Source: a virus (taxonomy: Duplodnaviria > Heunggongvirae > Uroviricota > Caudoviricetes). From it: a DNA stretch of 36,412 bases. Below are positions 3,306 to 36,412 of this stretch, piece by piece. The notes beneath the pieces are model-generated. The model worked only from the letters and a program-made list of their open reading frames with translations. It had not been told where the DNA came from and did no database searches. The position numbers were made by a program, and so were the translations under genes. Position 1 is the first letter of the stretch. The number at the start of each line of letters is the position of its first letter. The stretch lies in IMG/VR virus record IMGVR_UViG_3300043436_004120, positions 64,001 to 100,412 of that record; one strand, written 5' to 3'.

Positions 3306-5189
3306 TTAATAAGTTCCGCCGTCTATTTGAATTATACTTACCAGACCACTGGTAACTGAGAACTCAGTAGAATCAAAGCTAGCTAGACCATTTACACTAG
3401 TAGTGGCGGTTGGGATTGCGGTGCTGCCAGCGGCAGTAATCAAACCTTTGGCATTAACTGTAAAGTTTGGTACGGCTGTGCCGCTTCCAAAACTTCCGGT
3501 ATTTGCATTAACTGTAGCCAGGGTAAGTGCTGCTGATACGGCTGCGCTGCCGTCAAAACTCACTGTCCAAGCAGCGTCACCACTAGCAGTAATACTACGA
3601 GCTGTTTGTAGTGTGGTAGCTGTTGAGGCGTTACCAGTTAGTGCACCCGTAAAGGTTGTGGCTGCAACTGAGGTTAGGCCTGCTAAGGTAGTAGAACTAG
3701 CACCTAGCGCAATTGCTGTTGAACCAATTGTTACACTGCTATTTGCTAGCTTGTTGTTAGCAATGCTTCCAGCTAACATTGTGTTAGTAACTGTAGCACT
3801 ATCACCACTTGTAATAACTGTACCAGTTGTTGCTGGTAGTGTTAATACTGTGCCTGTACCTGCAACAACAGCTGGAACAATCTGCACACTTCCCGATGTA
3901 GCACCTGGTAGGGTTACGCTACTAATACCAGTTAGTGCTAAGTTACCGCTGGCGCGGTTTAGGGCAACTGACGTAGTACCAATAAAGTGAGCATCAGCGC
4001 GTCTGGCAATAGTTGCGTCTGCTGCAATTGTTACTGCTGAACTGCCATTATAGCTAGTACCGCTTAAACCGTCACCAATTGTTAGTGCATTGGTGACGGT
4101 TGAACTAATTGTAATATCTGCACTACCATCAAAACTTACGCCGTTGATTGTACGAGCTGTAGCAAGCGTAGTAGCTGTTGTGGCATTTCCCGACAGCGCA
4201 CCATAAACAGTGCCTACGGTTAAATCTTTGTTTAGGTTCCAGCGATCATTTGCGCTGGTATATGTAAATGTAGCAGGAGTTGTTGGACCTGCAACTGTTA
4301 AACCTGCGCCATTGGCAGCAGCTGCTGTGGTGGCATCTTTGGCTAAGGTAATATTAACGTCTGCAATGGCAACTGCTGTTGAGTTAATAGTAGTTGTTGT
4401 ACCTTGAACTAGTAGATCACCTGTAATAGTTGCATTACCAGCTATGCTAATGTTAGCAGCAGTAATGTCGTCACTAGTAAGAGTACCGTTAACTGTTACG
4501 CTGTTAAACGTTACGTTACTGGTTGTGCCAACTGCTTGACCGATTGCAAAGCTAACTTGGTTATCAGTAACTGTTGTAGTAACACCAGTTCCGCCTGCAA
4601 ATGTTAGTGTATCAGTACCCAGTGCAACACTATCAGTGCCAGTTCCACCAGCAATGTTTAATGACGTACTAATTGAGGCAGTGCTTACGGCTGTAACCAA
4701 ACCTTTTGCGTTAACAGTTACAACAGGAATTTGTGTTGCTGAGCCAAAACTTCCTACGTTAGTATTAACAGTGGCTAGTGTAATTGCTGCTGAAACCGCC
4801 GCACTACCATCTACTGAACTTAGTGTTGCTGTTGCGTCACCAGTTAGGCTTAAATCTCTGGCTGTAATCCATTTTGTTGCTGTGCTGGCATTACCAGTTA
4901 GTGCGGCGGTAATTGTACCTGCTGCAAAGTTGCCGCTGGCATCACGGCGAACCAGTGTTGAGGCTGTGTTTGAGGCAGTGGATGCTGTGATTTGGTCAGT
5001 AAAAAACTTACCGCCAATAACCACACGATTAACTGCATTACCTGCAGTTTCTGTGCCCATACCAATATAAAGTCTATCGCCTCCGTTAGACCCATTGTCT
5101 GCTAAACCAGAGTATGCTAATTCGCCTGCACCTAATACTGCAGGGTTACCACTTACTTCTGATCTTTTAATTTTAATAACTGCTGTCAT
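3306..5189 (-). CDS. Tail fibre protein (627 aa)
   Basis: N-terminal IKIKRS...GELAY docking motif; G/T/A/S-rich repeats (GNASTAT..L.TAR.I); internally duplicated ~75-aa module (...TVNAKGL.TA); C-terminal IDGGTY. Confidence 0.8.
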   Translation of the reverse strand: MTAVIKIKRSEVSGNPAVLGAGELAYSGLADNGSNGGDRLYIGMGTETAGNAVNRVVIGGKFFTDQITASTASNTASTLVRRDASGNFAAGTITAALTGNASTATKWITARDLSLTGDATATLSSVDGSAAVSAAITLATVNTNVGSFGSATQIPVVTVNAKGLVTAVSTASISTSLNIAGGTGTDSVALGTDTLTFAGGTGVTTTVTDNQVSFAIGQAVGTTSNVTFNSVTVNGTLTSDDITAANISIAGNATITGDLLVQGTTTTINSTAVAIADVNITLAKDATTAAAANGAGLTVAGPTTPATFTYTSANDRWNLNKDLTVGTVYGALSGNATTATTLATARTINGVSFDGSADITISSTVTNALTIGDGLSGTSYNGSSAVTIAADATIARRADAHFIGTTSVALNRASGNLALTGISSVTLPGATSGSVQIVPAVVAGTGTVLTLPATTGTVITSGDSATVTNTMLAGSIANNKLANSSVTIGSTAIALGASSTTLAGLTSVAATTFTGALTGNASTATTLQTARSITASGDAAWTVSFDGSAAVSAALTLATVNANTGSFGSGTAVPNFTVNAKGLITAAGSTAIPTATTSVNGLASFDSTEFSVTSGLVSIIQIDGGTY

Positions 5190-7586: not shown

Positions 7587-10500
7587 TTAATAGCCCTTAA
7601 TTTGATAAGACGTAGTAGACGCAACGGCGGCCCCCGTATTAGAAGTAAAACTGTATATGATCATACTGTTTGGATAAGTACTTACATTACCGCTAGTGTT
7701 TGAGGTAACCATACTAACTGTATATGAGTTTACGCTTATAACGGTTTGTATGATATATAACCCTGAAATACCAGTACCAGTTGTAAAGTACAACCTAACT
7801 TTTTGCCCTGCAACTAATCCGTGATTGGTTGCAGTTATAGTTGCCGTATTAGATGTAACACTATAAGTTCCAGTAATAACTGTGTCTTTAAAATCATACA
7901 CAGAAATTATAGAAGCAGTACTGGTACCAGCTGGAGTAAGAATAATTGATTGTACATCAATAAATTCTGAGTCAAAGTTAACTATTTTTCCGGCTTCTGG
8001 TACTGTTACATAGTTGGCTTCTGATTTCTGCTTAGAGTCTAAACGTATACGAAGATCGCTTATTTTTCGTATACTGCCTAAACTATTTTGAGATACTTCT
8101 ATACGGACTTTGATAAATCTAAAGTTGGTTGCAAATGCGTTACGTGCAGGTATTATACTATATGTAATACCGTCAGTACTAATAGACATAGTAGTAACAC
8201 TTGTTGTGCTACCAGCTACGTCTGTTTCTACGCTATTTAGTGTTATTTGGCTACTAGCTAGTATAGTTCCACAATCAAAAATTTCTTCGTAAAAACCACT
8301 AGAAGTTCCTGGCTGTATAAATATTGGATATCCAGCAGCGACTTGTGCACTAGGCCCTGCCCAACTGCGGGAAGTAAAGTGTGTAGTCCAAGTTTCTGTT
8401 GTATTTACTGGTAAAAATAATTCGCCTGCATAAGATTTAGCATTTGATAGTGTTCCAGTTAGTGGGGATATAAACTCAGCAATAAACTTAAAATCCGGTG
8501 GTTGCGAAACCGTAGCAGGTATCTCTACTGGAGTAGATTCTACACCATCAGTATCTACTGCTGCTAACCAATAAACATAGTCTCCGCCACTTAACTCGCT
8601 TATACTAGTAAATTCTCCACTTTTAGTTCCCAGTACAGTTGCGGTTGCCCACGTACCTGTTGGAGAACTTCTTTTAAGTAATACGTGAGCGATTGGTAAA
8701 CTAGTTTTTGCTCCATTTATCCAATATAACAGTACATTATTGTCAATTATTTGAGCTCTATAATTAGTAACTGGATTAGGGGCTAGTTTAGTAATATTTC
8801 CAGTATATCCACTAGATTTATTTCCTAATATATCTACGGTTTTAACTGTAAATGCCCTATTACCTACCCAGTCTGCTGGTAATGTAATAGTATTGGACTT
8901 AACATTATTTGTTATAGTTTCTAATCCAGAAACATATGTAACTTCATAATATTCTACAGCAAATTGTGTAGGTACTACATCTAACCAACTTAAAATAACT
9001 GTGGCATTAGTTAAAGAAGTATCAAAGTAAGAGTGTTCTAAATTAGTTATATTAGGTACAGCGGATAGCGTGAAAGTAGCGCTACTTGCTAGTACACTAT
9101 AGTTGCCGGAACTGTCTACTGCTTTAATATAATATATTGTTGAAGTATTGCCTGGATACTCTACAAACGTATTTATACTATCGCCTAGAAACAGTCTATT
9201 AGAGTTTGCAAAACTCCACTCACTATTTGCCTTGCGAACTTCATAGGTATAAGTATCTGCTTCAAGATTTGCGTTCCAAGATAGTTTTAACTGACCACTT
9301 GCCTTGTCTGGTACTACAGTAAATCCTGTAACTTGAGCTGGTGGATTGTTTTTTCCAACTACCATATGGTTAGAATAAGCAGTCCATTTACCTGTAGTGC
9401 CAGTACTACTAACATAACGTAAACGTACTCTATACGTTTGCCCTTCTAGTACATCTGGTAAATTAACTGAACCGTTCTGAACAGGCGCTAGAACAGTTTT
9501 TGCACCTACTACTGTTGTTGAATTACTTAACTCATATTCTGCTAGTACATGGGACGTAGTACTTGGTAAGTCGGCACTATTAGTATATGCAACATTAATA
9601 TTATATTTAAATACACCTTTAGACACGTATTCCATTACGGATTCATCACTTACAAACTTTGTTATAGTTGGAATCTTATTTCCAAACGTATTAGACTGTA
9701 ATGTTTGTGGTAAAGATATTTGAGACTCAAATACAGTACTGGCTGTTAGGCTTAAGTAATCTGTAAATATATTGTAGGCTGGTGTTACGCCAGTTGATGT
9801 TACTCCATAATCTACTAAAGTAAGTCTAGCCGTATTATTAGTAGAAGGCTCTATACTCAACACAATTAAGTCTTGCGACTCTTTATTTACTTCCCCAAAT
9901 AAAAATAAGTCACTATTATCAGCTTCAGCTGTAGTTACAGAAGATGTAAGCGTTATAGTACTGTAATACCCATCCTGAAGTACTGTTACCACTTGTCTAG
10001 CTACTGATCCACCTGTTTTGCTTCTAAAACGTACTGTGTAGGTAATACCAGGTTTCATTGGCACTGCTTCATCTAACTCTAATTGAGTAGAAGATATGCG
10101 ATTTTTAACTCTACCACTAGCTAATCCCCACATTGGTACATCATGCATAACTTTTACACGATCACCACGATTACAAACCAAATACTCCAAATCGGTATTT
10201 AGCACGTAAACTTCTGGACGTAATTTCATTTGTGCCATATGCCAGCGCGCATGGTCTATTACCAACGATTTTTTAGTTACTCCAGGTAGTGTAATGCTTT
10301 CAAATAGTGTGGCATTATTAGTACCTTTGCCAATATCATAAACAATAATTTCTGCTTCTTGATAGTCTTGATCTTGGTCGTAGTAAGTAACGCGTAACCC
10401 ATCTGGACGCTTCGGCAACCCTTTGTTACCCTCAAAACCCCAACTATTATGAGGGGTAAAGTGTTGTACTATGTTTGAGCGTGGTTCGTCAATAATTACT

Positions 10501-22906: not shown

Positions 22907-24832
22907 TTAAGCTACGAAACGTAGAGCTGAAACACCAGCACCTAGGTTAGTTGTAACTTGAGTCATGCCAGTACGTAGGCTAGCTACCATAACACGGCGT
23001 TGTGTTTCTACTAGGTCTTGTGTGTCAACACGTAGACCGCGTTGATTACCAACCAAGAAGTTACCTGGTGCAAAGCAAATTGCGCCAACTGTACCTGCGG
23101 CTTTGTCAGCAAACTCAGCACTTACTAGAACTGGAGTATTACCAACTGCACCGATTTGACCAGTTAACAGAGTGGCTTGTTGACCAACTTTGTCGACTGT
23201 TAGGAAGTTTGTGTCTTCTAGCAGGTCGTAGTAACCTTCTGTGCTTACGATGTAAACTAGTTCGGATGGGTCTAGACCCCATGCACCTAGGTCACGACGC
23301 ATAGCTTGCAGATTTGCAACTGTTAGTTTAGCAGCATCACTAATATCTAAATTAACGGCGCTTACTGCGTCGTAAGTTGCTAGACCTTTAACTGGGTCTG
23401 AACCGGAACCAGCACCACGTAGCATAGCACGGTCAACAGCGCGAGCAACACGGCGAACCATGGCGTCACGGATAACAGGCATAATTGCCAATAGTGCGTC
23501 TTCTTCTTCTTCGTAAGCAACGTATTCGTTTGTGGCAACTTTATACGCATTTAGAGTGATTTCTTTTAGCGCGTGTGTTGCGTTGCTACCAGCGGAATCA
23601 GTTGTACCGAATGCTGTGTTAGCCATCCATGTTGCAACACCAGCTTCTGGGTTCACAGGAATAGTCATCACGTTAGTTTGCATTGCAATACTACGTAGGT
23701 TAGGGGCAACAACTAAACGACGGCGAACTTCGTTTTCCATGTTTAATGAAACTTCTAGTTCCCAAGTTGCGCTTGGAACGTGAGCACCGTACTTTTGTAC
23801 CATTTCACGGCCAAACTTAGTGCCTTCTAGGCCTTTGCCAACCATCTTTGCGAGAATAACGGCCTTCTCTTTGTCAGCATAAGACATTTCACCGGCTTTG
23901 CCGTCTGTGAATTGCATACGTGACTTTTGAATGGCTTCTAATTCAGCTGCCTTTTCTTTTAGGCTAGCTTCTAGGCCTGCAACAACAGACTTAGTTTCGT
24001 CGGCTTGAGCAGCAAAACGCTTCTCAACTTCGGCTAGTAGTGCTTCAGCACCAGTTGTGCTTGGTGTTGCTAGTGCAACAGCAGCCTTGATTTTTGCATC
24101 TAGGTCAGCTTGAGTTGCAGCAGCAGCAGCTTTTTCAGCAGCAGCTTTTTCTTGTGCAGCTAGCAGAGACTTAGTGGCTTGGTCGGCAGCAGCAGTAGCA
24201 GCGTCGGCCAACATTTTTTGTAATTGTTCTGGAGTCATTTCCAATTCCTTTGTGATATCGCTTTTTGCTTCGCCGGAGGCTTCTAGCCCTTTAGCTGAGT
24301 CGCTTGGGTTAGCAAATTGCATTTTGAAACTCTTAAATTCTTCGGCTGTGTCGAACGCCTTAGAAAGACTAAATAGTGTATTTTGATTTGCTGGAACACT
24401 CACAACTGAGATTTCGTGCAGTTCCAGTTCTTTTACAACAAACAGCTCTAAGGCTGAATTATATTCCGCATCAGCGATACGGAAACCAATGCTAAAGGCG
24501 GTTAGCACGCCGTCTTTTACAAGATCATAAACATCTCCAGCCGCTTTAGAAATTCGTGCTTTAATCCACAAACCTTTTGCGTCAACGCGATGCTCAATCA
24601 TCCTGCCGATAGGTTCACTGTGATTGTGGTACGCTAAAATTACTGGATTCTTCAAGTAATTATCTACGCCCTTTTCCCACACACTGGCAGGAACAATATC
24701 ACCATGTCTATCAACGTCAGTAGTGGATGCGTAACCTTCAATTGTTACGCTCTCACCACCATCGTCTGTGGCAGGTAGACTGCTCTTTGTAAAAGAACTG
24801 TTTAAAAACAGGACTTTATTTTTATCTACCAT
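22907..24832 (-). CDS. HK97-type prohead protease fused to scaffold/major capsid protein (641 aa); internal start at 24238 would give a 443-aa capsid precursor
   Basis: Protease motifs IEGYAS..D, HNHSEPIG, FSIGF, EISVVSVPAN; then an Ala/Lys/Glu-rich coiled coil and a T5 pb8-like capsid; AAGGA lies 7 nt before the in-frame ATG at 24238. Confidence 0.9.
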   Translation of the reverse strand: MVDKNKVLFLNSSFTKSSLPATDDGGESVTIEGYASTTDVDRHGDIVPASVWEKGVDNYLKNPVILAYHNHSEPIGRMIEHRVDAKGLWIKARISKAAGDVYDLVKDGVLTAFSIGFRIADAEYNSALELFVVKELELHEISVVSVPANQNTLFSLSKAFDTAEEFKSFKMQFANPSDSAKGLEASGEAKSDITKELEMTPEQLQKMLADAATAAADQATKSLLAAQEKAAAEKAAAAATQADLDAKIKAAVALATPSTTGAEALLAEVEKRFAAQADETKSVVAGLEASLKEKAAELEAIQKSRMQFTDGKAGEMSYADKEKAVILAKMVGKGLEGTKFGREMVQKYGAHVPSATWELEVSLNMENEVRRRLVVAPNLRSIAMQTNVMTIPVNPEAGVATWMANTAFGTTDSAGSNATHALKEITLNAYKVATNEYVAYEEEEDALLAIMPVIRDAMVRRVARAVDRAMLRGAGSGSDPVKGLATYDAVSAVNLDISDAAKLTVANLQAMRRDLGAWGLDPSELVYIVSTEGYYDLLEDTNFLTVDKVGQQATLLTGQIGAVGNTPVLVSAEFADKAAGTVGAICFAPGNFLVGNQRGLRVDTQDLVETQRRVMVASLRTGMTQVTTNLGAGVSALRFVA

Positions 24833-26040: not shown

Positions 26041-26472
26041 TTAAATAAACCGTGAGAAAAATGAGTTGTGTGTGCTTGTGGGAACTGCTTTATCACCATT
26101 AACGTGCTTGGATCGCTGGAGTTCGATCCAACGCTGCTGTTTAGGTTCGGAACCTACTGCTGGAGCTTTGCCATAAATTGAATGCAGCGCTACATGATGC
26201 GGATTACAAAGGGTGTAAACTTTATCATATAACTCCACATGGTGCTCAGTAATAAATTCGTCACGAACAGCTAAGATGCCTTCGTCTGTTGATATATCGT
26301 AACCTTTGCGCGCAGCCCACGTTTCTAACAATATTGTAATTGAGTGTAGGTGATGAAGTTCCAAGTCTTTGGTTGTATCGCAAACAAAGCACTGGGATTT
26401 TTTATCGTATGCCGCCTTGGCTTTGTCTCTGACCCATTTAACAGGGATACGATTGTTTGTGTTCTTGGCCAT
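26041..26472 (-). CDS. HNH-type nicking endonuclease (T5-like, between terL and portal)
   Basis: C..C....LELHH...LC..HH..LH..YG; T5 synteny. Confidence 0.8.
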   Translation of the reverse strand: MAKNTNNRIPVKWVRDKAKAAYDKKSQCFVCDTTKDLELHHLHSITILLETWAARKGYDISTDEGILAVRDEFITEHHVELYDKVYTLCNPHHVALHSIYGKAPAVGSEPKQQRWIELQRSKHVNGDKAVPTSTHNSFFSRFI

Positions 26473-27905: not shown

Positions 27906-28381
27906 TAAACACCATCTCCACTAATAAGTCGTGAGACCAGCTGCGAGTATTTTGACCCGTCTAGACCTTCGTTGATTTGCACGTTTACTTGCTTTGAGGG
28001 ACCGCCTGGGCCTTGCCTGAGTTTTTCAAGTTGGATTTCACGATCCAATAGGTCCATCGACATTTTATGACTAAGGTGTAACAGGTCAGCAATATCCTTA
28101 GTGCTTCCAGTTTGTGATTCATGTAATTCCTGAAATTTTTGCTTGATTAAGCTATCCATGGCTGCACGCATTTCAAACTTGTTGTTGAAGCCGGTATCCA
28201 TAAAAACGTGGTCAATATACGATTTAACCTCGCGGCGTGATAATATCTCGGTGACCAGTGTGGGGGCCAAGTCCAGTTCGTCAGCGACCCGTTTGGCGTC
28301 ACATAGTTGTAGGTAGCAGTTTGCCACTTCCAGGGCTTCTGGGGCAATTTGCAGGGTTTCTGCAGGTAGGTTTTGCGTCAT
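27905..28381 (-). CDS. terS: Terminase small subunit (T5-like, 158 aa)
   Basis: True start MTQNLPAET at 28381 with AAAGGA RBS; EALEVANCYL...YID.VF.DTGFNN...KD..DLL..SHKM; TAATG overlap with terL. Confidence 0.8.
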   Translation of the reverse strand: MTQNLPAETLQIAPEALEVANCYLQLCDAKRVADELDLAPTLVTEILSRREVKSYIDHVFMDTGFNNKFEMRAAMDSLIKQKFQELHESQTGSTKDIADLLHLSHKMSMDLLDREIQLEKLRQGPGGPSKQVNVQINEGLDGSKYSQLVSRLISGDGV

Positions 28382-28452
28382 AGTAGGTTCCTTTGGGGCA
28401 ATTATACCACGGGGGCGTGTGGTAACACAAGTGGATATTTTTGGTGGAGGTT

Positions 28453-28502
28453 GGGGCAGTTGGGTGGTTTGGGGCGATTTGGGCGGTTTAGGGTCGAACG
28501 GG
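28453..28502 (+). other. G-quadruplex-forming motif with six G3+ tracts at ~10-nt period
   Basis: GGGG-cagtt-GGG-tggttt-GGGG-cgattt-GGG-cggttta-GGG-tcgaac-GGG in the non-coding gap between divergent modules. Confidence 0.55.
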
Positions 28503-28747
28503 TTGTGGTATGGCACCGTAGTGGTTTTGGGATTTTGTTCAAATAGGCCGCGTGTGGGTGGGTGCAGCGGCATATGTGTAAACTTTAGTCTACTAACCGC
28601 CCCTAGTCCTTTTGTTTGCAAACCTACCACAGTATGAGTACTTTTGTTTCCTATCAGATTTGTGAACCAACTACTACTTAGGGTAAGCACCTAGAAAATA
28701 ATTTGCAAAAGGCTTGCACAACTAAAATTCAATGGTATAATTCATAC

Positions 28748-28945
28748 ATGACAACGAAAGACACTATGACTACCGAAACACGAATCTCTGCACTTGCATA
28801 TGCTGAAGCCCTGATTGCATACTATCGTGCACAAAATACCGAAGGTATCGACAAGGATACTTTGGTTCGCAAAGCATATAATGCGCTGTGTGATGCACAA
28901 AATATGTTGGCTTATGAGGCTGAATGTGAGGCTAAAAATGCGTGA
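28748..28945 (+). CDS. Hypothetical protein (65 aa)
   Basis: ATG 6 nt after TATAAT; alternative ATG at 28766; stop overlaps the next gene. Confidence 0.6.
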   Translation: MTTKDTMTTETRISALAYAEALIAYYRAQNTEGIDKDTLVRKAYNALCDAQNMLAYEAECEAKNA

Positions 28946-29024
28946 ATTTTTTGACATGGTGTTGGCAATGGCTTGCATTGCCTTGCCTTTTGTGATATAC
29001 TTTGCTTTTGTAATGAAACCTTGA
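28938..29024 (+). CDS. Small single-TM membrane protein (28 aa)
   Basis: GAGG RBS; MREFFDMVLAMACIALPFVIYFAFVMKP; overlaps the upstream stop. Confidence 0.55.
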   Translation: MREFFDMVLAMACIALPFVIYFAFVMKP

Positions 29025-29037
29025 AAGGAAAATTGAA

Positions 29038-29361
29038 ATGACTGCTAAAACTGTGAACTATACCCCTGAGCAAACCTTGCAAATGGTTGCCGACTACCAA
29101 GCCGGTGCAACTGTTGAAACCATTGCTGAAAAGTTGGGCAAGACCGTGCGTTCGGTGGTTGCCAAACTGTCACGCGAAAAGGTTTACGTTGCTAAAACGT
29201 ACGTTTCCAAAACTGGTGAGGCTGTAATCAAAAAGGATGCTGTTGCAGACTACATTGCTGAGGCTCTTGGCTTGGGTGAGGCTGATGCTGAATCGCTAAC
29301 CAAAGCTAACAAAACTGCGCTGAAAGCCATTGCAGATTTCATCAAGGCTGAAAAGACCTGA
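29038..29361 (+). CDS. HTH DNA-binding protein, T5 A2-like, paralogue 1
   Basis: YTPEQT...IAEKLGKTVRSVVAKLSRE..Y HTH; KK...SLTKANKTAL C-terminus like A2; strong RBS. Confidence 0.7.
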   Translation: MTAKTVNYTPEQTLQMVADYQAGATVETIAEKLGKTVRSVVAKLSREKVYVAKTYVSKTGEAVIKKDAVADYIAEALGLGEADAESLTKANKTALKAIADFIKAEKT

Positions 29362-29366
29362 TTTGT

Positions 29367-29391
29367 GCAGGGGATTGCATCCCCTGCTTTT
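29367..29391 (+). terminator. Intrinsic terminator overlapping the -35 of the next promoter
   Basis: GCAGGGGAT-TGC-ATCCCCTGC-TTTT. Confidence 0.75.
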
Positions 29392-29426
29392 GTGTGATAT
29401 AATTGTTTTTTAACTTGGAGAATATG

Positions 29427-29738
29427 ATGAAACTGTCAGCAATTGAAAAAACTATCCGCAAAGAACTCAAACAAGACCTGGCCCAGGCTAATGGACAGGT
29501 TTTCACTGATGAGGACTTTAGCATTACTGTGGTGGCTGTGCCTGCGTGTGGGCGTGAGGATTCGGCTTTTGTGCACGTTGCCGTGGCACAATGTAGCTCA
29601 GGCGACACATTCAAGCGCAAGCGTGGCGAACTGATTGCGCTTGAGCGTTGGGCTGATGGTTGCGTGTTGAGCGTTCGCCGTAATGGGCGATGCTTGCAAG
29701 ATGTTGCTGATGACTTGGTAGGATTCTTGACAATGTAA
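29427..29738 (+). CDS. Hypothetical phage protein with C-x3-D-x-F-x4-G-x2-IA motif
   Basis: GGAG RBS; VAVAQCSSGDTFKRKRGELIALER. Confidence 0.65.
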   Translation: MKLSAIEKTIRKELKQDLAQANGQVFTDEDFSITVVAVPACGREDSAFVHVAVAQCSSGDTFKRKRGELIALERWADGCVLSVRRNGRCLQDVADDLVGFLTM

Positions 29739-29753
29739 TCTTTTGTTTCCAAT

Positions 29754-29821
29754 CCGCAAATGAATACTTTTGTTTGCGGCTTGGGGCGCCAATTATATCA
29801 CATATAATTGGCCCGTGTCAA
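29754..29821 (-). repeat. Early-region repeat, copy A (antisense promoter plus 18-mer core)
   Basis: ATGAATACTTTTGTTTGC 29760-29777; GGCGCC; ATTATA 29792; TGTCAA 29816-29821. Confidence 0.85.
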
Positions 29822-29902
29822 GGGTTTGGTGATTGATTTTTACAATCACTGCGATAAATAAAATCAATGCTCAAACACTTGCCAATGGCTTATAATACAC
29901 AC

Positions 29903-30034
29903 ATGAACACAAACACTTACATTGTCCACAATATGTCCGGCGTATATTATGATATGCTTATGAATAGTTGCCCTGCATGGGTCTGGACAGATACAGAATT
30001 TGAAGATTATTTTGCAATGATGACAGGATGTTAA
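29903..30034 (+). CDS. Hypothetical protein (43 aa), probably leaderless
   Basis: ATG 6 nt after TATAAT; MNTNTYIVHNMSGVYY...; stop 1 nt before the next ATG. Confidence 0.55.
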   Translation: MNTNTYIVHNMSGVYYDMLMNSCPAWVWTDTEFEDYFAMMTGC

Positions 30035-30035
30035 C

Positions 30036-30356
30036 ATGAAACAATTTATTGATTATCTCAAATTAAAAAAGCCCGTTACAATTCGGATTGTGCCACGCAA
30101 GAATTCACAATGTGATGCTGAATACGAACCTGAGTATTCAGAACGCGGCAAATTGTGTGAACACATTATTACAGTTTACACCAAGAATGCAACCCGTGAT
30201 TTTGAAACCCTTATTGCACATGAATTAATTCACGCATGGCAAGAAGAAAATAAAAAAACAGAAACACATGGCCCTGCATTTATTAAATATGCAAACAAAA
30301 TACAACGTGATTTTGGCTTGCGTGATGTTTACATTTCAGGCATTGACTTAGAATAG
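30036..30356 (+). CDS. SprT-like zinc metalloprotease
   Basis: TLIAHELIHAW...HGPAF (HExxH plus downstream HG..F). Confidence 0.75.
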   Translation: MKQFIDYLKLKKPVTIRIVPRKNSQCDAEYEPEYSERGKLCEHIITVYTKNATRDFETLIAHELIHAWQEENKKTETHGPAFIKYANKIQRDFGLRDVYISGIDLE

Positions 30357-30366
30357 AAACCAAGGT

Positions 30367-30440
30367 TTGCAAACAAAAATGAATACTTTTGTTTGCAAGT
30401 TGGCGCCAATATTATACTATATAATATTTGGCCGTGTCAA
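30367..30440 (-). repeat. Early-region repeat, copy B
   Basis: TTGCAAACAAAA-ATGAATAC-TTTTGTTTGCAA (12-bp stem); GGCGCC; ATTATA 30411; TGTCAA 30435-30440. Confidence 0.88.
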
Positions 30441-30584
30441 GGGGTTGTGCGAAAAAACAACGAAAATAATTGTAACAGTCGGGGCAAATTGTTACACTTT
30501 ATTTTGTTGAAACAACAAAAAAAGCCTTGCAAAGCTCAAAAAGCCTGATATAATTACTACATCAACAACGAACAGAGGTTCAAA

Positions 30585-31061
30585 ATGGCTAAGATTACAA
30601 AGGTTTCGATTTACGACATGGATGGTACTATTGTTTGCAGTTTGCACAGATATAGAACTATTGTTGACGAAAACGGCGAGCGTATTGATTTGAATTACTG
30701 GCGCGAAAATGAGTATCGCGCAATGGATGATTCATTATTGCCATTAGCATCACAATATCGTGCTGATTTGCGTGATGATAATACTTTTGTGATTATTGCC
30801 ACTGCCCGAGTTTTGCGTGATGCTGACAATGAATTCATTAAAACTGTTTTAGGTGAACCCGATTATATTATTAGTCGGGTTGACGGTGATTCAACTTCAG
30901 GCGGTAAACTCAAAATCGCTGGTTTGGCAAAGTTTTTTAATCTTAAAAACTTCAAAGATGCTGAATTTACATTTTATGAAGATAATACCACTTATTTAAA
31001 AGCTGTCTGTGACCGTTTTAATATTCGTGGGGTTTATGTTCCATCAAAACAAGGTCACTAA
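30585..31061 (+). CDS. HAD-superfamily phosphatase (polynucleotide kinase phosphatase-like)
   Basis: IYDMDGTI motif I, IIATAR motif II, FYEDN motif IV. Confidence 0.8.
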   Translation: MAKITKVSIYDMDGTIVCSLHRYRTIVDENGERIDLNYWRENEYRAMDDSLLPLASQYRADLRDDNTFVIIATARVLRDADNEFIKTVLGEPDYIISRVDGDSTSGGKLKIAGLAKFFNLKNFKDAEFTFYEDNTTYLKAVCDRFNIRGVYVPSKQGH

Positions 31062-31097
31062 AATATAATCCCTTCGGGGATTATAAAGGATTATAAA

Positions 31098-31253
31098 ATG
31101 ATTAATCGCATTAAATTTTGGCTCAATATGTTATTGATTCCAATATACACTATTCTATTTTTTATTGTTGGGCAAAAACATTTATATAATGAATATATAG
31201 ATGAATTAAAATTGGCCATTAATGAAACAAAAAGAAAATATAATATAAAATAA
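31098..31253 (+). CDS. Small membrane protein (51 aa)
   Basis: AAAGGA RBS; hydrophobic stretch FWLNMLLIPIYTILFFIV; not in the supplied ORF track. Confidence 0.55.
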   Translation: MINRIKFWLNMLLIPIYTILFFIVGQKHLYNEYIDELKLAINETKRKYNIK

Positions 31254-31263
31254 CACTTTTGTT

Positions 31264-31333
31264 TGCAAACCAAAATGAATACTTTGGTTTGCAGTTTGCG
31301 CCAATTATATCATTATAATTGTGCCCGTGTCAA
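31264..31333 (-). repeat. Early-region repeat, copy C
   Basis: TGCAAACCAAA-ATGAATAC-TTTGGTTTGCA (compensatory change relative to B); GCGCC; ATTATA 31304; TGTCAA 31328-31333. Confidence 0.88.
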
Positions 31334-31401
31334 GTTTTTTCGTATAACTTATTTTTCGTGTGTGATTAAAAAACAACAAAATTCTGTGATATAATTCAGG
31401 C

Positions 31402-31782
31402 ATGGACAAAAAAGCACTTTTAACCCACTTACAGCGTGAGACTGTAATGATTTGGGATACACTTTGCGAAATTTATACACCTTTGGTTCACTACAACGAG
31501 CCAAAGGTAGAACTTAACCCTTACTTTTGGCGCTGTGCTGGTGCGTGTTTTCAGGAACAAAACCGCATACAAATGGGTTACAAATTTTTCAAAGCTAAAA
31601 CAGAATATTTCAATATCATGATGGATGTAATACTTCCGCATGAAATTATTCATCAGGCTGACTGGAATCTTTTCGGAAAATCCGAAAAAATTTGTGGGCA
31701 TGGTGAAAATTGGCAAAAAATCATGGTAGAATATGGGCTAGACCCTAACCCACATCACACAATGGAGATTTTGAGAAAATGA
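31402..31782 (+). CDS. SprT-like zinc metalloprotease, second copy
   Basis: ILPHEIIH...GHGENWQKIM...G; ATG 6 nt after TATAAT. Confidence 0.8.
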   Translation: MDKKALLTHLQRETVMIWDTLCEIYTPLVHYNEPKVELNPYFWRCAGACFQEQNRIQMGYKFFKAKTEYFNIMMDVILPHEIIHQADWNLFGKSEKICGHGENWQKIMVEYGLDPNPHHTMEILRK

Positions 31783-31994
31783 TTACTTTTGTTTCTTGGT
31801 TTGGTACTGTTGCAAGTATCCTTGGCAGTTTTGCAGTTGCAACCGCAATGTTTAAATTGGGATATGTTTTGTTTACTTTTGGTTCACTGGCTTGGTTGAT
31901 GGTTGCTTTTGTTCGCAAAGACAAGTCGCTGGGTGTACTTAATGGCACATTTTTTGTTGCCAACCTTTTGGGCATTTACAATAACTTTTTTTGA
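31779..31994 (+). CDS. Three-TM small membrane protein (PnuC/half-transporter-like)
   Basis: WFGTVASILG...GSLAW...KD..L..LN..F...N..GI; three hydrophobic helices. Confidence 0.6.
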   Translation: MITFVSWFGTVASILGSFAVATAMFKLGYVLFTFGSLAWLMVAFVRKDKSLGVLNGTFFVANLLGIYNNFF

Positions 31995-32055
31995 AGTTTT
32001 TTGTAAATTCTCGAAAAACTGTGTTATAATCTAGGCTTACCAACTGAAAGCAATC

Positions 32056-32754
32056 ATGGCTAAAAAACAATTCTTTGCAATTCTTGACACTGAAACCACA
32101 ATTGAAAATACTGTGGCTGATTTTGCCATTATTATCGTTGACCGACAAGGCAAAATCCATAATCAATGCGCTGTTTTGGTAAATAATCATTATGGCAATT
32201 TTGAATTGTTTCACGATAAAAAAGCCAATGATATTTGGGGTTATTCTGGTTTGGAAAAACGAAAAGCCAATTATGTGAAAATGCTAGATAATGGCTCACG
32301 TATGCTTGCCTCAATTAATGCCATTAATAAATGGATAAACCAAGCCATTGGCAAATATAATCCTATTTTGACTGCATATAATCTCAGTTTCGATTTAGAC
32401 AAATGCCAAAATACTGATATTGATTTATCTGGTTTCACAGAAAAGTTTTGTTTGTGGCAAGCCGCTATTGGTAATATCTGCAATAAAAAACAATATCGTG
32501 ATTTTGTTTTGCAAAATCACCTTTTTAATAAACCCACAGTAAATGGCAATATGACATTTTCAACAACTGCTGAATCAGTTTGTGGTTTTATTAATGGTGA
32601 ATTTAAAATCGAGCCACATACTGCCTTAGAAGATGCCCGTGATTTTGAATTGCCGATTTTGCAAGCCGTTATTAATAAACGCGATTGGCGCGAGAAAATG
32701 ACACCATATAACTGGAAACAGTTTCAAGTAAAAGACCATTTCAAACCCGCATAA
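32056..32754 (+). CDS. DEDDh-family 3'-5' exonuclease
   Basis: ILDTETT (Exo I), AYNLSFD (Exo II), HTALEDA (Exo III). Confidence 0.85.
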   Translation: MAKKQFFAILDTETTIENTVADFAIIIVDRQGKIHNQCAVLVNNHYGNFELFHDKKANDIWGYSGLEKRKANYVKMLDNGSRMLASINAINKWINQAIGKYNPILTAYNLSFDLDKCQNTDIDLSGFTEKFCLWQAAIGNICNKKQYRDFVLQNHLFNKPTVNGNMTFSTTAESVCGFINGEFKIEPHTALEDARDFELPILQAVINKRDWREKMTPYNWKQFQVKDHFKPA

Positions 32755-32769
32755 TATAGGGGCGATTAT

Positions 32770-32886
32770 ATGAAAGCATTATATATAATCGCCCTTTGCT
32801 TTCATTTACTGGAAGAAAAGCGATTAGAAACTAAATACGAAACAAACCCTTTTCAAATTCAAACTGTGACGGAGATAATCAAATGA
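32770..32886 (+). CDS. Hypothetical protein (38 aa)
   Basis: AGGGG RBS; ATGA overlap with the PQ-loop gene; not in the supplied track. Confidence 0.45.
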   Translation: MKALYIIALCFHLLEEKRLETKYETNPFQIQTVTEIIK

Positions 32887-33134
32887 TGGAAACTATTGGC
32901 TGGATTGGTTCTATATTATTGGCATTTTGTGGATTACCTCAAGCCATAGAATCTTATAAAACAAAAAACTCGGATGGATTAACTTGGGGCTTTTTGGGAA
33001 TGTGGGGAATGGGCGAGATATTCACCATAATCTACATTTTACCAAAATGGCATTGGCCGCTGATATTTAATTATACCGCCAACATTATATTTATTTCGAT
33101 TATCTTGTATTATAAGATTAAACCGAAAAGATAA
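32883..33134 (+). CDS. PQ-loop / SemiSWEET-like three-TM transporter
   Basis: IGWIGSILLAFCGLPQAIESYKTKNSDGLTW (PQ motif), then two more TM helices with PL..NY. Confidence 0.82.
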   Translation: MMETIGWIGSILLAFCGLPQAIESYKTKNSDGLTWGFLGMWGMGEIFTIIYILPKWHWPLIFNYTANIIFISIILYYKIKPKR

Positions 33135-33135
33135 T

Positions 33136-33161
33136 AAAAAGCCCCAGGACGGGGCTTTTTT
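33136..33161. terminator. Bidirectional intrinsic terminator
   Basis: AAAAAGCCCC-AGGAC-GGGGCTTTTTT. Confidence 0.85.
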
Positions 33162-33168
33162 ATTTGTG

Positions 33169-33249
33169 AAACAAAAGTATTCATGACCAAAAATGAATAC
33201 TTTTGTTTTCGGGGCGCCAATTATATCATTATAATTGTGCCCGTGTCAA
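33169..33249 (-). repeat. Early-region repeat, copy D (core present as a 16-bp inverted pair)
   Basis: AAACAAAAGTATTCAT-N8-ATGAATACTTTTGTTT; GGCGCC; ATTATA 33220; TGTCAA 33244-33249. Confidence 0.88.
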
Positions 33250-33334
33250 CATTTATTTATAACATATTTTTTGTAGGGGATTAAAAAACAACACAATTTT
33301 ATGGTATAATTAGGTGTGGGCGCGCCAAAAATTT

Positions 33335-33423
33335 ATGGATACTTTTGTTTGCAAAAATTTCTGTGAACCAAAGCATTACAAGCCTGGCGCCAAAATTATA
33401 CCACACGCCCAAAAAGCTGTCAA
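33335..33423 (-). repeat. Early-region repeat, copy E (core more distant from the promoter)
   Basis: ATGGATACTTTTGTTTGC 33335-33352; GGCGCC 33386; ATTATA 33395; TGTCAA 33418-33423 (17-nt spacer). Confidence 0.75.
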
Positions 33424-33505
33424 TAGGGGTTTATCCCTATGTTGTATTTTCGCAAATTTTAAAAAACACTTGTTTTTTGCCTGTTTTGTCTGTATAATAG
33501 AACAC

Positions 33506-33688
33506 ATGATGAAAACAAAAACCCTTCCAAAAAGTCGTGGCTTTGCCACTGTTGTAAATGGTAAACTTACTGTTTACGTTGGTGCAACTCAGCGTGAAAT
33601 GACTATGAAGTTTTTTAATACTAAAGTAGTCAAGGTAAAATTTGACTATTTGGGGCTTGGACGGGTTGCAAATGTTGAAATTGTGTGA
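33506..33688 (+). CDS. Hypothetical basic protein (60 aa), probably leaderless
   Basis: ATG 7 nt after TATAAT; MMKTKTLPKSRGFATVVNGK...; the longer 33314 start crosses repeat E and is not credible. Confidence 0.6.
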   Translation: MMKTKTLPKSRGFATVVNGKLTVYVGATQREMTMKFFNTKVVKVKFDYLGLGRVANVEIV

Positions 33689-33721
33689 TATAATTGTTTT
33701 TTAACCTGAAAGGAAATCAAA

Positions 33722-34054
33722 ATGGAAAAAGCAACTAAGGCGGTCAACTATACCGCAGAGCAAACCGCTAAAATGGTGGCCGATTATGCGGCTGGTGTCG
33801 CAGTTGAGACAATCGCTGAAAATTTGGGCAAAACCGTTCGTTCGGTTGTGGCTAAACTGTCACGCGAAAAAGTCTACGTGGCTAAAACTTATGTTTCAAA
33901 AACTGGTGCTCCAGTAATCAAAAAGGATGCACACGCTGATGCAATCGGCGCGATTCTCAAATTGTCTGAGAATGAGATCGAAAGTCTTACAAAAGCCAAT
34001 AAAACGGCACTGGAAAAGATTTTCTCAGCATTGGCAAATTCTAAGCCAATCTGA
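33722..34054 (+). CDS. HTH DNA-binding protein, T5 A2-like, paralogue 2
   Basis: GKTVRSVVAKLSREKVYVAKTYVSKTG identical to paralogue 1; own promoter and AAGGA RBS. Confidence 0.7.
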   Translation: MEKATKAVNYTAEQTAKMVADYAAGVAVETIAENLGKTVRSVVAKLSREKVYVAKTYVSKTGAPVIKKDAHADAIGAILKLSENEIESLTKANKTALEKIFSALANSKPI

Positions 34055-34057
34055 TTA

Positions 34058-34076
34058 ATGGGGCATTATGCCCCAT
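34058..34076 (+). terminator. Hairpin / probable terminator
   Basis: ATGGGGCAT-T-ATGCCCCAT followed by TTT. Confidence 0.55.
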
Positions 34077-34101
34077 TTTCCCTTTTTAATCTGGAGATAA
34101 T

Positions 34102-34353
34102 ATGTTTTTTAATTTGCCCTCATTTGCTGATAAACCCGTTGTTCTAACATTTTGCCAATTGGGTATTAATCCCCAAGATTATAATGGTTTGCCATTTGAG
34201 AAAATCAGGCCTGAATATATTAATATCGCGGCGGATTATCTGCTGGATATTACTGGCGATTATGACTATGAGTTATTCGCGCATTATGAATGGGAAATTG
34301 ATTATGTCCAGCGATTAATTAAAATCCCCCGATCAGCATTTGTTCCTGATTAA
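34102..34353 (+). CDS. Hypothetical protein (83 aa)
   Basis: GGAG RBS; clean ORF between two terminators. Confidence 0.65.
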   Translation: MFFNLPSFADKPVVLTFCQLGINPQDYNGLPFEKIRPEYINIAADYLLDITGDYDYELFAHYEWEIDYVQRLIKIPRSAFVPD

Positions 34354-34357
34354 TTTT

Positions 34358-34380
34358 AAAACCCGCATAATGCGGGTTTT
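34358..34380. terminator. Bidirectional intrinsic terminator
   Basis: AAAACCCGCAT-A-ATGCGGGTTTT. Confidence 0.8.
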
Positions 34381-34393
34381 ATTTTGCCCACTA

Positions 34394-34482
34394 ATGTGTA
34401 CTTTTGTTTGCCATGCAAAAATGAATACTTTTGTTTGCAATTTGGCGCCAAAATTATAGCATAGAATTTTAGCCTGTGTCAA
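34394..34482 (-). repeat. Early-region repeat, copy F (two direct cores)
   Basis: ATGTGTACTTTTGTTTGC 34394-34411 and ATGAATACTTTTGTTTGC 34421-34438; GGCGCC; ATTATA 34453; TGTCAA 34477-34482. Confidence 0.88.
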
Positions 34483-34527
34483 GCACTGTTACAAACTGTT
34501 ACAATTGGATGTTGTTTTTTTGCCACC

Positions 34528-34542
34528 TGGCACGATTCTTGC
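34528..34542 (+). promoter_or_regulatory. sigma54 (-24/-12) consensus site
   Basis: TGGCACGATTCTTGC matches TGGCACG-N4-TTGC. Confidence 0.55.
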
Positions 34543-34552
34543 GCCAGCGGCC

Positions 34553-34573
34553 AAATGCGAATCATTATCATTT
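34553..34573. promoter_or_regulatory. Fur-box-like site
   Basis: AAATGCGAATCATTATCATTT; 7-1-7 core TGCGAAT-C-ATTATCA vs consensus TGATAAT-N-ATTATCA. Confidence 0.55.
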
Positions 34574-34590
34574 GCGTTCGCAATTGCGTA

Positions 34591-34638
34591 TATGCTTATA
34601 TAATTATATGCTTATATAATTATATGCTTATATAAGCA
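34591..34638. repeat. AT-rich 16-bp tandem repeat, 3 copies
   Basis: TATGCTTATATAATTA twice, then TATGCTTATATAAGCA; the last copy contains the palindrome TGCTTATATAAGCA. Confidence 0.9.
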
Positions 34639-34649
34639 AATAAGCATAA

Positions 34650-34666
34650 AGCACCATAATGGTGCT
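34650..34666. promoter_or_regulatory. NtrC-box-like palindrome
   Basis: AGCACCATAATGGTGCT matches GCACC-N5-GGTGC. Confidence 0.55.
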
Positions 34667-34752
34667 GCGCCAGTGGAAAACCTTGTCAAGTGCAAAACCT
34701 TGGGCCTCATGCGCCAGTGGCCAATCAAGTGCAAAAACGTAGTGGTTGGTCT

Positions 34753-34787
34753 GCGCCATTATACCAGTGGCCAATCAATTGTGTCAA
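34753..34787 (-). promoter_or_regulatory. Early-region repeat, copy G (antisense promoter only)
   Basis: GCGCC-ATTATA-N18-TGTCAA. Confidence 0.65.
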
Positions 34788-34859
34788 GTAAAAAATTTTT
34801 TATTTGATCCGTGTGCCCAAGTTTTGTATAATTGTTATATCAACAGTAAGGAACCACAC

Positions 34860-34991
34860 ATGACAACAGCCGATTTTTTCGCAGATTTTGCATACGAGCA
34901 GTACTCGGAATTTGTGGACCACGAACTTCGCGAAATGTTCCAGTGTACCAACCCTCAAGACAAAAATTTTGATCTTGATGTTCCATTCTAA
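34860..34991 (+). CDS. Small acidic protein (43 aa)
   Basis: AAGGA RBS, own promoter; MTTADFFADFAYEQYSEFVDHELREMF...DLDVPF. Confidence 0.6.
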   Translation: MTTADFFADFAYEQYSEFVDHELREMFQCTNPQDKNFDLDVPF

Positions 34992-35040
34992 TCACGGTAT
35001 AATAATATCTTCAACAGCGCAGAAACCAACCAAAGGACAT

Positions 35041-35352
35041 ATGATGACTAAAGCAACCCCTCAAAACTACACCCCCGAGCAAACCGTGGAACTCGTCACT
35101 GGCTACCAGTCGGGCAAAACCGTTGAGCAACTGGCCGAGACTCTGGGCAAAACCGTGCGTTCGGTTGTGGCTAAACTGTCGCGCGAAGGCGTGTACGTGG
35201 CCAAGACCAAGGCAACTGGCCAAGCCCGTGTAAAGAAAGCCGAGCTGGTGGACAAACTGGCACTGGCCTGTGGCGTAGCTCCAGAAGTGTTTGAATCGCT
35301 GGAAAAGGCCAATCACGAAGTCTTGGAACGACTTGTTGCCGAACTGGCCTGA
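35041..35352 (+). CDS. HTH DNA-binding protein, T5 A2-like, paralogue 3
   Basis: AAAGGA RBS; LGKTVRSVVAKLSREGVYVAKT...SLEKAN; true start 35041, not 34888. Confidence 0.7.
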   Translation: MMTKATPQNYTPEQTVELVTGYQSGKTVEQLAETLGKTVRSVVAKLSREGVYVAKTKATGQARVKKAELVDKLALACGVAPEVFESLEKANHEVLERLVAELA

Positions 35353-35788
35353 CAGCCACGGTTGAGGGTCAAGAAATTTTAACTTGATGCCTCAGCCCCA
35401 ATTTGATATAATAATATCTTAGAAATTAATAAAGAACCCAGTCGGGAATGGCTTAATGAATACCAAACAACTTTGTTAGTTGGTGCCAGTTCCGCTTCAG
35501 CAGCCCACCTCACTACCCAGCAATTAGATTGCAACTATCTGTGTGGCTAGCCTGCAAGCAACGATTGGAATTTCTTTGTTGATTCTTTTTGTCAAATACT
35601 GTATAATTTATTTATAAATTAGTGAATTGGGTGACAGCGGAGGCGGGACTTATCTGCCATGCGTCTTAATTGTGGGGAATAAATTACCCGAGCCACAGCC
35701 CCAAAGAATTCGGTGTTATGCGACCTCGCCCTATATAGCTAGGATAACAACTTAATTGGCAGAGAAGCTACTGCCAGCCAACTTATGC

Positions 35789-35863
35789 ACTTGATTCGTC
35801 TATCGGCTAGGACACCCGCCTTTCACGCGGACAAGACGGGTTCGATTCCCGTATCAAGTACCA
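35789..35863 (+). tRNA. tRNA-Glu (anticodon UUC)
   Basis: Acceptor ACTTGAT/ATCAAGT, D arm GTC/GAC, anticodon loop CT-TTC-AC, T arm ACGGG-TTCGATT-CCCGT, encoded CCA. Confidence 0.93.
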
Positions 35864-35960
35864 AACAAGGAGAGACAACTCCGTGCCCCTATAAGGCTGT
35901 GCAGAACCTAAACCGTGTTGCTTGCGAAACCCGGCATGATGGTAACAAATAACCACCAAC

Positions 35961-36055
35961 CCTCTGATGAGCACATGCAAGTTGTGCGAAACTCTAAGGC
36001 CCGTACCAGTGTGCGAGTGTTACCCACCACTCCGCTGGCGCGACTTAGGGTCAGG
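35961..36055 (+). ncRNA. Hammerhead-ribozyme-like core (type I topology, very short stem I)
   Basis: CTGATGA; stem II GCACA/TGTGC; GAAA; stem III ACTCTAAG/CTTAGGGT; cleavage triplet GTC (36050-36052); stem I only CCT/AGG. Confidence 0.4.
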
Positions 36056-36412
36056 ACGAAACCCTGAAAGCAATTGTGAAAACTGGAAGTGGCGATCTGT
36101 TGAGCTCCGGCTGATGCAGTGAACTACAGAAACTTAGTAGCTAGCGGAAAGCAAGTAGTACTCCTAGTGAGCAGTTACTATATAAACTGCCGTCTTATCT
36201 GGTACCGACGTAAAATGGTCTTGGTAGACTGGTGCACTGACGTACCCGAGCAATAACAACCCGTAAGGTGGTTCGACCCTAAGTTGCAGAGGGTTCGTAA
36301 AATTATCTAACCGGAGACAACCGTATTAAACACCGACCCCGAACTGCACAGGGGTCACTAAAAATTGTGTGCAGGCGCTAAGCGTTGAAAGCGTAAGCCC
36401 ACCCCAAGCTGT

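Follow-up and report, generated by a model that had tools for sequence, protein, structure and literature searches.

A 506-bp gene-free gap in a T5-like phage genome as a probable counterpart of T5 Repeat Region 3

We analysed a 36,412-nt stretch of viral DNA (hereafter the window), which forms the last 36.4 kb of the 100,412-bp IMG/VR virus record IMGVR_UViG_3300043436_004120, and found that a 506-bp gap between its genes (34354-34859) probably corresponds, in this distant and uncultured T5-like phage, to Repeat Region 3 of T5, the block at the injection-stop boundary. A shared order of motifs, a T5-type terminal motif ~6 kb upstream, a dmp gene lying between the two and a homologue of proteins annotated as nickases lead to this assignment. 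As judged from sequence, the identity of the gap as a counterpart of the T5 region is well supported; an injection-stop function would follow by analogy with T5, where it has been mapped to the region and not proven.

Repeat Region 3 of T5 is a gene-free block of repeats at the inner end of the first-injected DNA, with the presumed injection stop signal (iss), a major nick at a specific site and the terminal-repeat edge. It reportedly lies within the left terminal repeat (Heusterspreute 1987; Wang 2005; Davison, bioRxiv 10.1101/866236). In Davison's account, the shear point of first-step transfer is placed in DRE2 and the DRE repeats are described as likely candidates for iss.

Results

On its minus strand the window encodes a siphovirus structural module, beyond which lies a run of small plus-strand genes (Table 1). 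In the phage database, terL gave its top matches to Vibrio T5-like phages at 49% identity, and the gene order at this point is that of T5, with terL and terS on the minus strand followed by plus-strand genes. A single 641-aa ORF (22907-24832, minus strand) matched both the prohead protease and the major capsid protein, which are two genes in T5. The two ends of the record (genome positions 1-1000 and 99575-100412, the latter corresponding to window 35575-36412) form an imperfect mutual repeat, 100% identical over the first 127 nt and ~90% identical over the remainder; this repeat is non-coding and holds a tRNA-Glu gene.

The gap is flanked by an 83-aa gene on one side and, on the other, by a 43-aa ORF (34860-34991) and then a 103-aa helix-turn-helix (HTH) gene (35041-35352). 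As the preliminary description of this DNA had stated for ~300 nt of it, the gap holds no credible gene, its ORFs being at most 48 aa long with no ATG start among them. Relatives of the 103-aa protein are encoded on 252 viral contigs, and the position of the gap is kept across more than 50 related viral contigs, with 81%, 78% and 75% nucleotide identity over 445-511 nt in three of them (L010, L014 and L022). Searches of the gap DNA against phage records by megablast and blastn returned zero matches, and an Rfam search over 28600-36412 detected the tRNA-Glu and nothing else above threshold. The elements kept in relatives are the terminator, the first leftward promoter (P1) with its CTGTTACAA pair, the sigma54-type box, the hairpin with its TGCGCC, the tandem units, the second leftward promoter (P2) and the rightward promoter. 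In addition, contigs of 22 of the 80 relatives stop 0.07-1.85 kb downstream of the 103-aa gene, which suggests that this region assembles poorly. Considered as a proxy for the genome end, these contig ends were rejected, since their scattered positions mark no terminus.

Table 1 Features of the window (positions within the 36,412-nt stretch; strand given as +, - or. for features without a strand)
Feature	Position	Strand	Remarks
Siphovirus structural module	window	-	terS, terL, portal, protease-capsid fusion, major tail protein, J-like tail protein
HNH protein	26041..26472	-	142 aa, between terL and portal
T5-type near-terminal 16-mer TTAGTCTNCTAACCGCC	28585..28601	+	exact match
Small plus-strand genes	starting 29038	+	
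dmp (deoxynucleoside-5'-monophosphatase) homologue	30585..31061	+	pre-early marker gene of T5
Two-way terminator hairpin	34357..34381	.	closes upstream plus-strand operon; stem covaries in relatives
Two TACTTTTGTTTGC boxes	34399..34438	+	direct pair in window, inverted pair in other relatives
P1, perfect leftward sigma70 promoter (TTGACA-18-TATAAT)	34453..34482	-	core invariant in relatives
CTGTTACAA x2	34486..34504	+	10-nt period, immediately upstream of P1 -35
Sigma54-type -24/-12 box (TGGCACGATTCTTGC)	34528..34542	+	within near-palindrome TGGCAnGAnTCnTGC
T5 DRE-core palindrome (Fur-like box) and TTGCG-TT-CGCAA dyad	34553..34583	.	AAATGCGAATCATTATCATTT at 34553-34573, dyad at 34572-34583
Three tandem AT-rich 16-mers	34589..34636	.	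100/100/94% identical
GC hairpin AGCACCATAATGGTGCT (NtrC-like palindrome)	34650..34666	.	counterpart of T5 palE
G/GCGCAG, T5 major-nick consensus	34665..34671	-	overlaps hairpin 3' arm
Tandem units GCGCCAGTGG...CAAGTGCAAAA(CC)	34667..34740	+	44-nt spacing, like T5 DRD (TGTGCAAATCCGAC)
P2, second perfect leftward sigma70 promoter	34758..34787	-	
Rightward sigma70 promoter (TTGATC-17-TATAAT)	34804..34832	+	extended -10 kept in relatives

The position of the gap within the genome resembles that of the T5 region. The 16-mer TTAGTCTNCTAACCGCC occurs in T5 at 26-42 and, in the right repeat, at 111557-111573, and an exact match has a calculated chance of ~5e-5 per genome. Across IMG/VR, T5-like isolate genomes carry it 23-26 nt from their start, and it recurs in contigs of the phage's relatives, where it precedes the gap by 5407-6418 nt (6082 nt in the window). 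From these matches, the 16-mer is predicted to mark the left edge of a first-entering or terminal-repeat domain, which would put the left end of the genome, or else the point where the terminal repeat starts, near 28,560. That predicted point sits ~85 nt to the right of a G-tract array (28453-28502). The 16-mer itself falls in a non-coding segment (~28350-28700) upstream of terS, which a 261-aa terS ORF call overruns; the terS match of that ORF is confined to residues 114-257. Between the 16-mer and the gap lies the dmp homologue (37% identity to T5 Dmp over 86 aa, E=9e-16 in BLASTP). No homologue of T5 A1 was found in the phage, similarity to T5 A2 was marginal (E=0.04), and a search for the T5-type right-end motif near the gap gave matches at chance level only.

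The gap also reproduces the internal layout of the T5 region, as the third reading offered by the preliminary description (an analogue of the T5 injection-stop signal) would have it; that reading is supported by motif homology, by the order of the elements and by where the gap lies with respect to the terminal motif. Both blocks are gene-free, follow a run of small pre-early genes on one strand and lie several kb inward of the conserved near-terminal motif. Both show in the same order a terminator, a DRE-core palindrome, tandem repeats, a GC hairpin that runs into a nick consensus and, with a likeness over ~10 nt, repeats of GTGCAAA type. The gap differs from T5 in several respects. The T5 IRD'-spacer-IRC' element (two DnaA-box pairs 52 bp apart) is absent from the gap, consensus DnaA boxes (TTWTNCACA) were found neither there nor in relatives other than L031, and LexA-type CTGT-N8-ACAG palindromes number zero in the gaps of the phage and its relatives; the CTGTTACAA pair is at best a distant echo of the T5 DnaA boxes. 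There is one DRE core as against two 66-bp repeats in T5 and about three DRD-like units as against nine, the distance from the terminal motif is ~6 kb rather than 9.6 kb, and the block is followed by genes rather than by further repeats. A sigma54-type box and a pair of perfect leftward sigma70 promoters are additions of the window phage. It also counts against a T5 counterpart that the contig ends of relatives cluster downstream, away from the gap.

At the DRE core, window 34553-34578 matches T5 9653-9678 at 24 of 26 positions (E=1e-6), with a Smith-Waterman score of 42 compared to 23.7 +/- 2.4 (maximum 35) in 300 shuffles. This core (AAATGAGAATCATTATCATTTGC type) is present as a single copy, unique in the genome, and several relatives are without it; in T5, the motif gave eight matches, all in the iss region of the two terminal repeats (control 0). 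Downstream of it, the tandem GCGCCAGTG...CAAGTGCAAAA units are kept in relatives, and about three GTG(C/G)AAAACC units resemble the T5 DRD repeat, a likeness that spans only ~10 nt. A related 9-mer, TTTT[GC]CAC[TA], is 15-fold enriched in the gaps of relatives.

The GC hairpin is conserved as a structure. Among 52 distinct relatives, the segment had a mean minimum free energy of -9.4 kcal/mol (z -2.4), compared to -1.8 (z 0.16) for an adjacent control; its arms comprised 34 different hexamers, with changes in the stem compensated. These values come from folding each sequence separately, as RNAalifold called no pairs because the register of the stem shifts between sequences. The overlapping TGCGCC is invariant in 21 aligned relatives. 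It is part of a conserved CTGCGCC, read on the minus strand as G/GCGCAG, a putative nick site that matches the major-nick consensus of T5, R/GCGCRGG (PMC3517423), except at the last base (GCGCAGC). In T5, the annotated nick 9748/9749(-) abuts palE, just as the nick consensus adjoins the hairpin in the window. A second G/GCGCAG copy lies at 34751-34757, and in the whole genome GGCGCAG occurs seven times on the minus strand versus once on the plus strand, a bias that with so few sites is suggestive only. The HNH protein offers a further parallel to the major single-chain interruptions of T5: it is homologous to the 'nicking endonuclease' of Vibrio phage 234P1 (43% identity, E=6e-39) and to T5.153 (35% identity, E=8e-29), and its gene adjoins terL.

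All the motifs that the preliminary description had listed in the gap are present where it placed them (Table 1), together with four GCGCCAG(Y)GG-type and two CCAGTGGCCAATCAA repeated units. The GCGCCAG units contain the T5 nick consensus on the minus strand as well as the DRD-like repeats. The excess of the motifs over chance proved mixed: the sigma54-type box is convincing through its conservation, and the Fur-like and NtrC-like sites are equalled elsewhere in the genome. What had been called a Fur box is the T5 DRE core, matching the 19-bp Fur consensus at 14 of 19 positions, no better than other AT-rich sites of the genome (six sites reach at least 14, and two exceed it). The presumed NtrC site, with 10 of 12 consensus positions, is matched equally well at three other genome loci, and GCACC-N5-GGTGC is found only in the window and in L015, other relatives having a hairpin with different stems in which structure and not sequence is kept. 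This palindrome, 108 nt downstream of the sigma54-type box, was also the sole candidate for the proposed NtrC enhancer ~100 bp from a sigma54 promoter.

Of the elements read as host-regulator sites, the sigma54-type box is the only one that holds up. The -24/-12 consensus of sigma54 (RpoN) promoters is YTGGCACGr-N3-TTGCW. The pattern occurs once in the window, where 0.14 occurrences are expected and 12 of 100 shuffles contain at least one, and this is its single occurrence in the 100-kb genome. The chance excess alone is weak, and the box becomes convincing because it is conserved. TGGCAC-N5-TTGC is present in the gaps of most relatives, often as two to seven exact copies on both strands, which form palindromic pairs or tandem arrays with a spacing of 18 or 26 nt; outside these gaps, about ten matches were found in 574 kb. 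At least one box is present in 46 of 72 distinct upstream regions of relatives. It is absent from T5 and 11 T5-like isolates. An unbiased tally of the copies yields a near-perfect 17-bp dyad with a kept GAnTC centre, and the positions that break the dyad, C6 and T12, are conserved and are the bases that sigma54 needs.

In common with sigma54 promoters, the box has the exact TGGCACG-N4-TTGC, with GG, GC and the dyad-breaking C and T kept across copies. It differs from such promoters in several respects: the window phage has neither a conserved activator site nor an activator of its own (phage proteins matched neither the sigma54 activator domain PF00158 nor the sigma54 DNA-binding domain), orientation flips among relatives, up to seven exact copies occur on both strands within ~300 bp, and every gene directly downstream has its own sigma70 promoter. 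At the level of sequence it is a conserved, lineage-specific element with neither an activator site nor a fixed orientation. The box may be a putative site for sigma54 holoenzyme or for a dimeric protein. A literature search on sigma54 boxes in T5-like phages retrieved nothing relevant.

The gap also holds sigma70 promoters. The rightward promoter would serve the 43-aa ORF and the 103-aa HTH gene. Leftward, P1 and P2 belong to a set of seven perfect sigma70 promoters on the minus strand (29792-34787), antisense to the plus-strand genes, each followed by GGCGC(A/C) and mostly also by TACTTTTGTTTGC boxes. The nine genome copies of TACTTTTGTTTGC all lie inside window 28639-34426, and the nine TACTTTTGTTT boxes and seven perfect leftward promoters are all within the ~6-kb domain that starts at the terminal motif. 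A direct pair of TACTTTTGTTTGC boxes in some relatives is an inverted pair in others, favouring a protein-binding site over an RNA hairpin. In the distant relative L064 (3374-3410), a palindromic pair of sigma54-type boxes takes the place of the TACTTTTGTTTGC boxes downstream of P1, and box and DRE core together have the opposite orientation to that in the window. The CTGTTACAA pair is kept in about nine of 14 close relatives and in L064, with an additional copy beside another leftward promoter at 30470; it goes with the leftward promoter modules, contrary to the regulator role previously assigned to it.

These observations allow a reading in which the gap is a transcription hub and nothing more. 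The boxes would then be operators for the phage's small HTH proteins, their resemblance to sigma54 sites being accidental, which we regard as unlikely; that the three HTH paralogues of the phage, two of which flank the gap, switch the two leftward and the one rightward sigma70 promoters is likewise doubtful. Three conserved promoters inside the gap, the near-perfect dyad with its GAnTC centre, the occurrence of the box in both orientations, in palindromic pairs and in tandem, and the HTH matches of the flanking genes, weak as they are, speak for such an arrangement. However, it is precisely the dyad breaks required by sigma54 that are conserved, in phage 234P1 the sigma54 core alone is kept with a variable spacer, neither box presence nor central repeat type follows the identity of a flanking protein, and the motifs shared with T5 iss would be left unexplained.

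The preliminary description itself had favoured a decoy that titrates, or a sensor that reads, Fur, NtrC and OmpR-type regulators together with sigma54. As stated this is unsupported, with only the sigma54-type box surviving, and we consider it improbable. The exact, conserved and multi-copy box in relatives is compatible with it, as is the expectation that any holoenzyme bound there would idle, the phage having no activator or sigma54 DNA-binding domain; the DRE core, moreover, includes a perfect Fur right half, and its T5 copies reach 15-16 of 19 Fur positions. Yet one to few sites per genome make a weak sink, relatives alternate ATTATCA to ATTCTCA in the Fur-like site and so move off the Fur consensus, the NtrC-like palindrome varies in sequence among relatives and is equalled at three other loci, and the CTGTTACAA pair goes with the promoter modules.

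The centre of the gap (~34546-34650) is a variable slot. Close relatives share the AT-rich repeats of the window, and others have GTGACTG-type repeats, a 27-mer in three copies (L064), a 20-mer in three copies (L044) or nothing; in L031 the slot (~3526-3577) holds perfect TTATCCACA DnaA boxes, three in number, of which two lie 11 nt apart. Central repeat type showed zero co-variation with five flanking proteins. A replication origin with iteron-like repeats, an AT-rich unwinding element, DnaA-box-like 9-mers and activating flanking promoters could look like this, given the three tandem 16-mers, the lineage-specific repeats that occupy this slot in relatives, the arrays of TTTT(G/C)CACT, which differ from a relaxed DnaA box at one position, and the DnaA boxes of L031. 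We nevertheless hold it to be very improbable: repeats and adjacent proteins do not co-vary, GC skew has no turning point at the gap, replication genes are located elsewhere in the genome, and the published origins of T5 lie near the genome centre (Davison, bioRxiv 10.1101/866236).

Assignment to the T5 Repeat Region 3 family of elements is extended by a third lineage, the cultured Demerecviridae member Vibrio phage 234P1 (MW824415; L159), in which DRE core, boxes, AT-rich tandem repeats, GC element and DRD array follow one another as they do in the window. Its sigma54-type boxes (four exact copies, compared to 0 in the control, with varying spacers) likewise neighbour a DRE-like core, tandem AT-rich repeats and an array of DRD-like units. 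In contrast to the family of the window phage, where both are absent save for the DnaA boxes of L031, 234P1 has kept consensus DnaA boxes and LexA-type palindromes, and it has a 549-aa gene after a DNA-binding-protein gene, where T5 has A1 after A2. The repeat regions of 234P1 (record 105174-106811 and 109401-110797) contain DnaA boxes, several CTGT-N8-ACAG palindromes, the four exact sigma54-type boxes with further TTGGCAC-type near-copies, and about four AT-rich tandem repeats of ~60 nt each.

Discussion

If the gap acts as its T5 counterpart is presumed to, DNA would enter the cell from the end near 28,560 and pause at the gap, the block being held either by proteins already in the cell or by DNA structure. 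The minus strand would be nicked next to the hairpin, and the block would also set the genes expressed first apart from the following operon, whose promoter is at 34804. In this scheme, the sigma54-type box may represent an exchangeable binding module within the block, as may the lineage-dependent tandem repeats.

A broader proposal, to which we attach little weight, is that T5-like phages stop first-step transfer by means of a landing pad for resident host DNA-binding proteins, swapped between lineages. Its specific form is just as tentative: the coliphages would use DnaA, LexA-type and Fur-like sites, and the window lineage and Vibrio T5-like phages would use idle closed complexes of sigma54-RNA polymerase. 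With no activator encoded, sigma54 holoenzyme would just sit on the DNA.

Conclusions

The injection pause of T5 has been a question for more than 50 years, and to our knowledge comparisons of the iss region have so far covered close relatives of T5 only. A lineage whose terL is 49% identical to its nearest phage-database matches separates a kept layer (the DRE-core palindrome, the hairpin joined to the nick consensus, the repeats of GTGCAAA type and the placement with respect to the terminal motif) from an exchangeable one (tandem repeats specific to lineages, together with DnaA, LexA-type and sigma54-type boxes). That the gap in the window has no DnaA boxes argues against a stop model based on DnaA only. 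The elements of the gap provide concrete short targets for binding and deletion work, and the cultured Vibrio phage 234P1 offers a usable system for the sigma54-type boxes.
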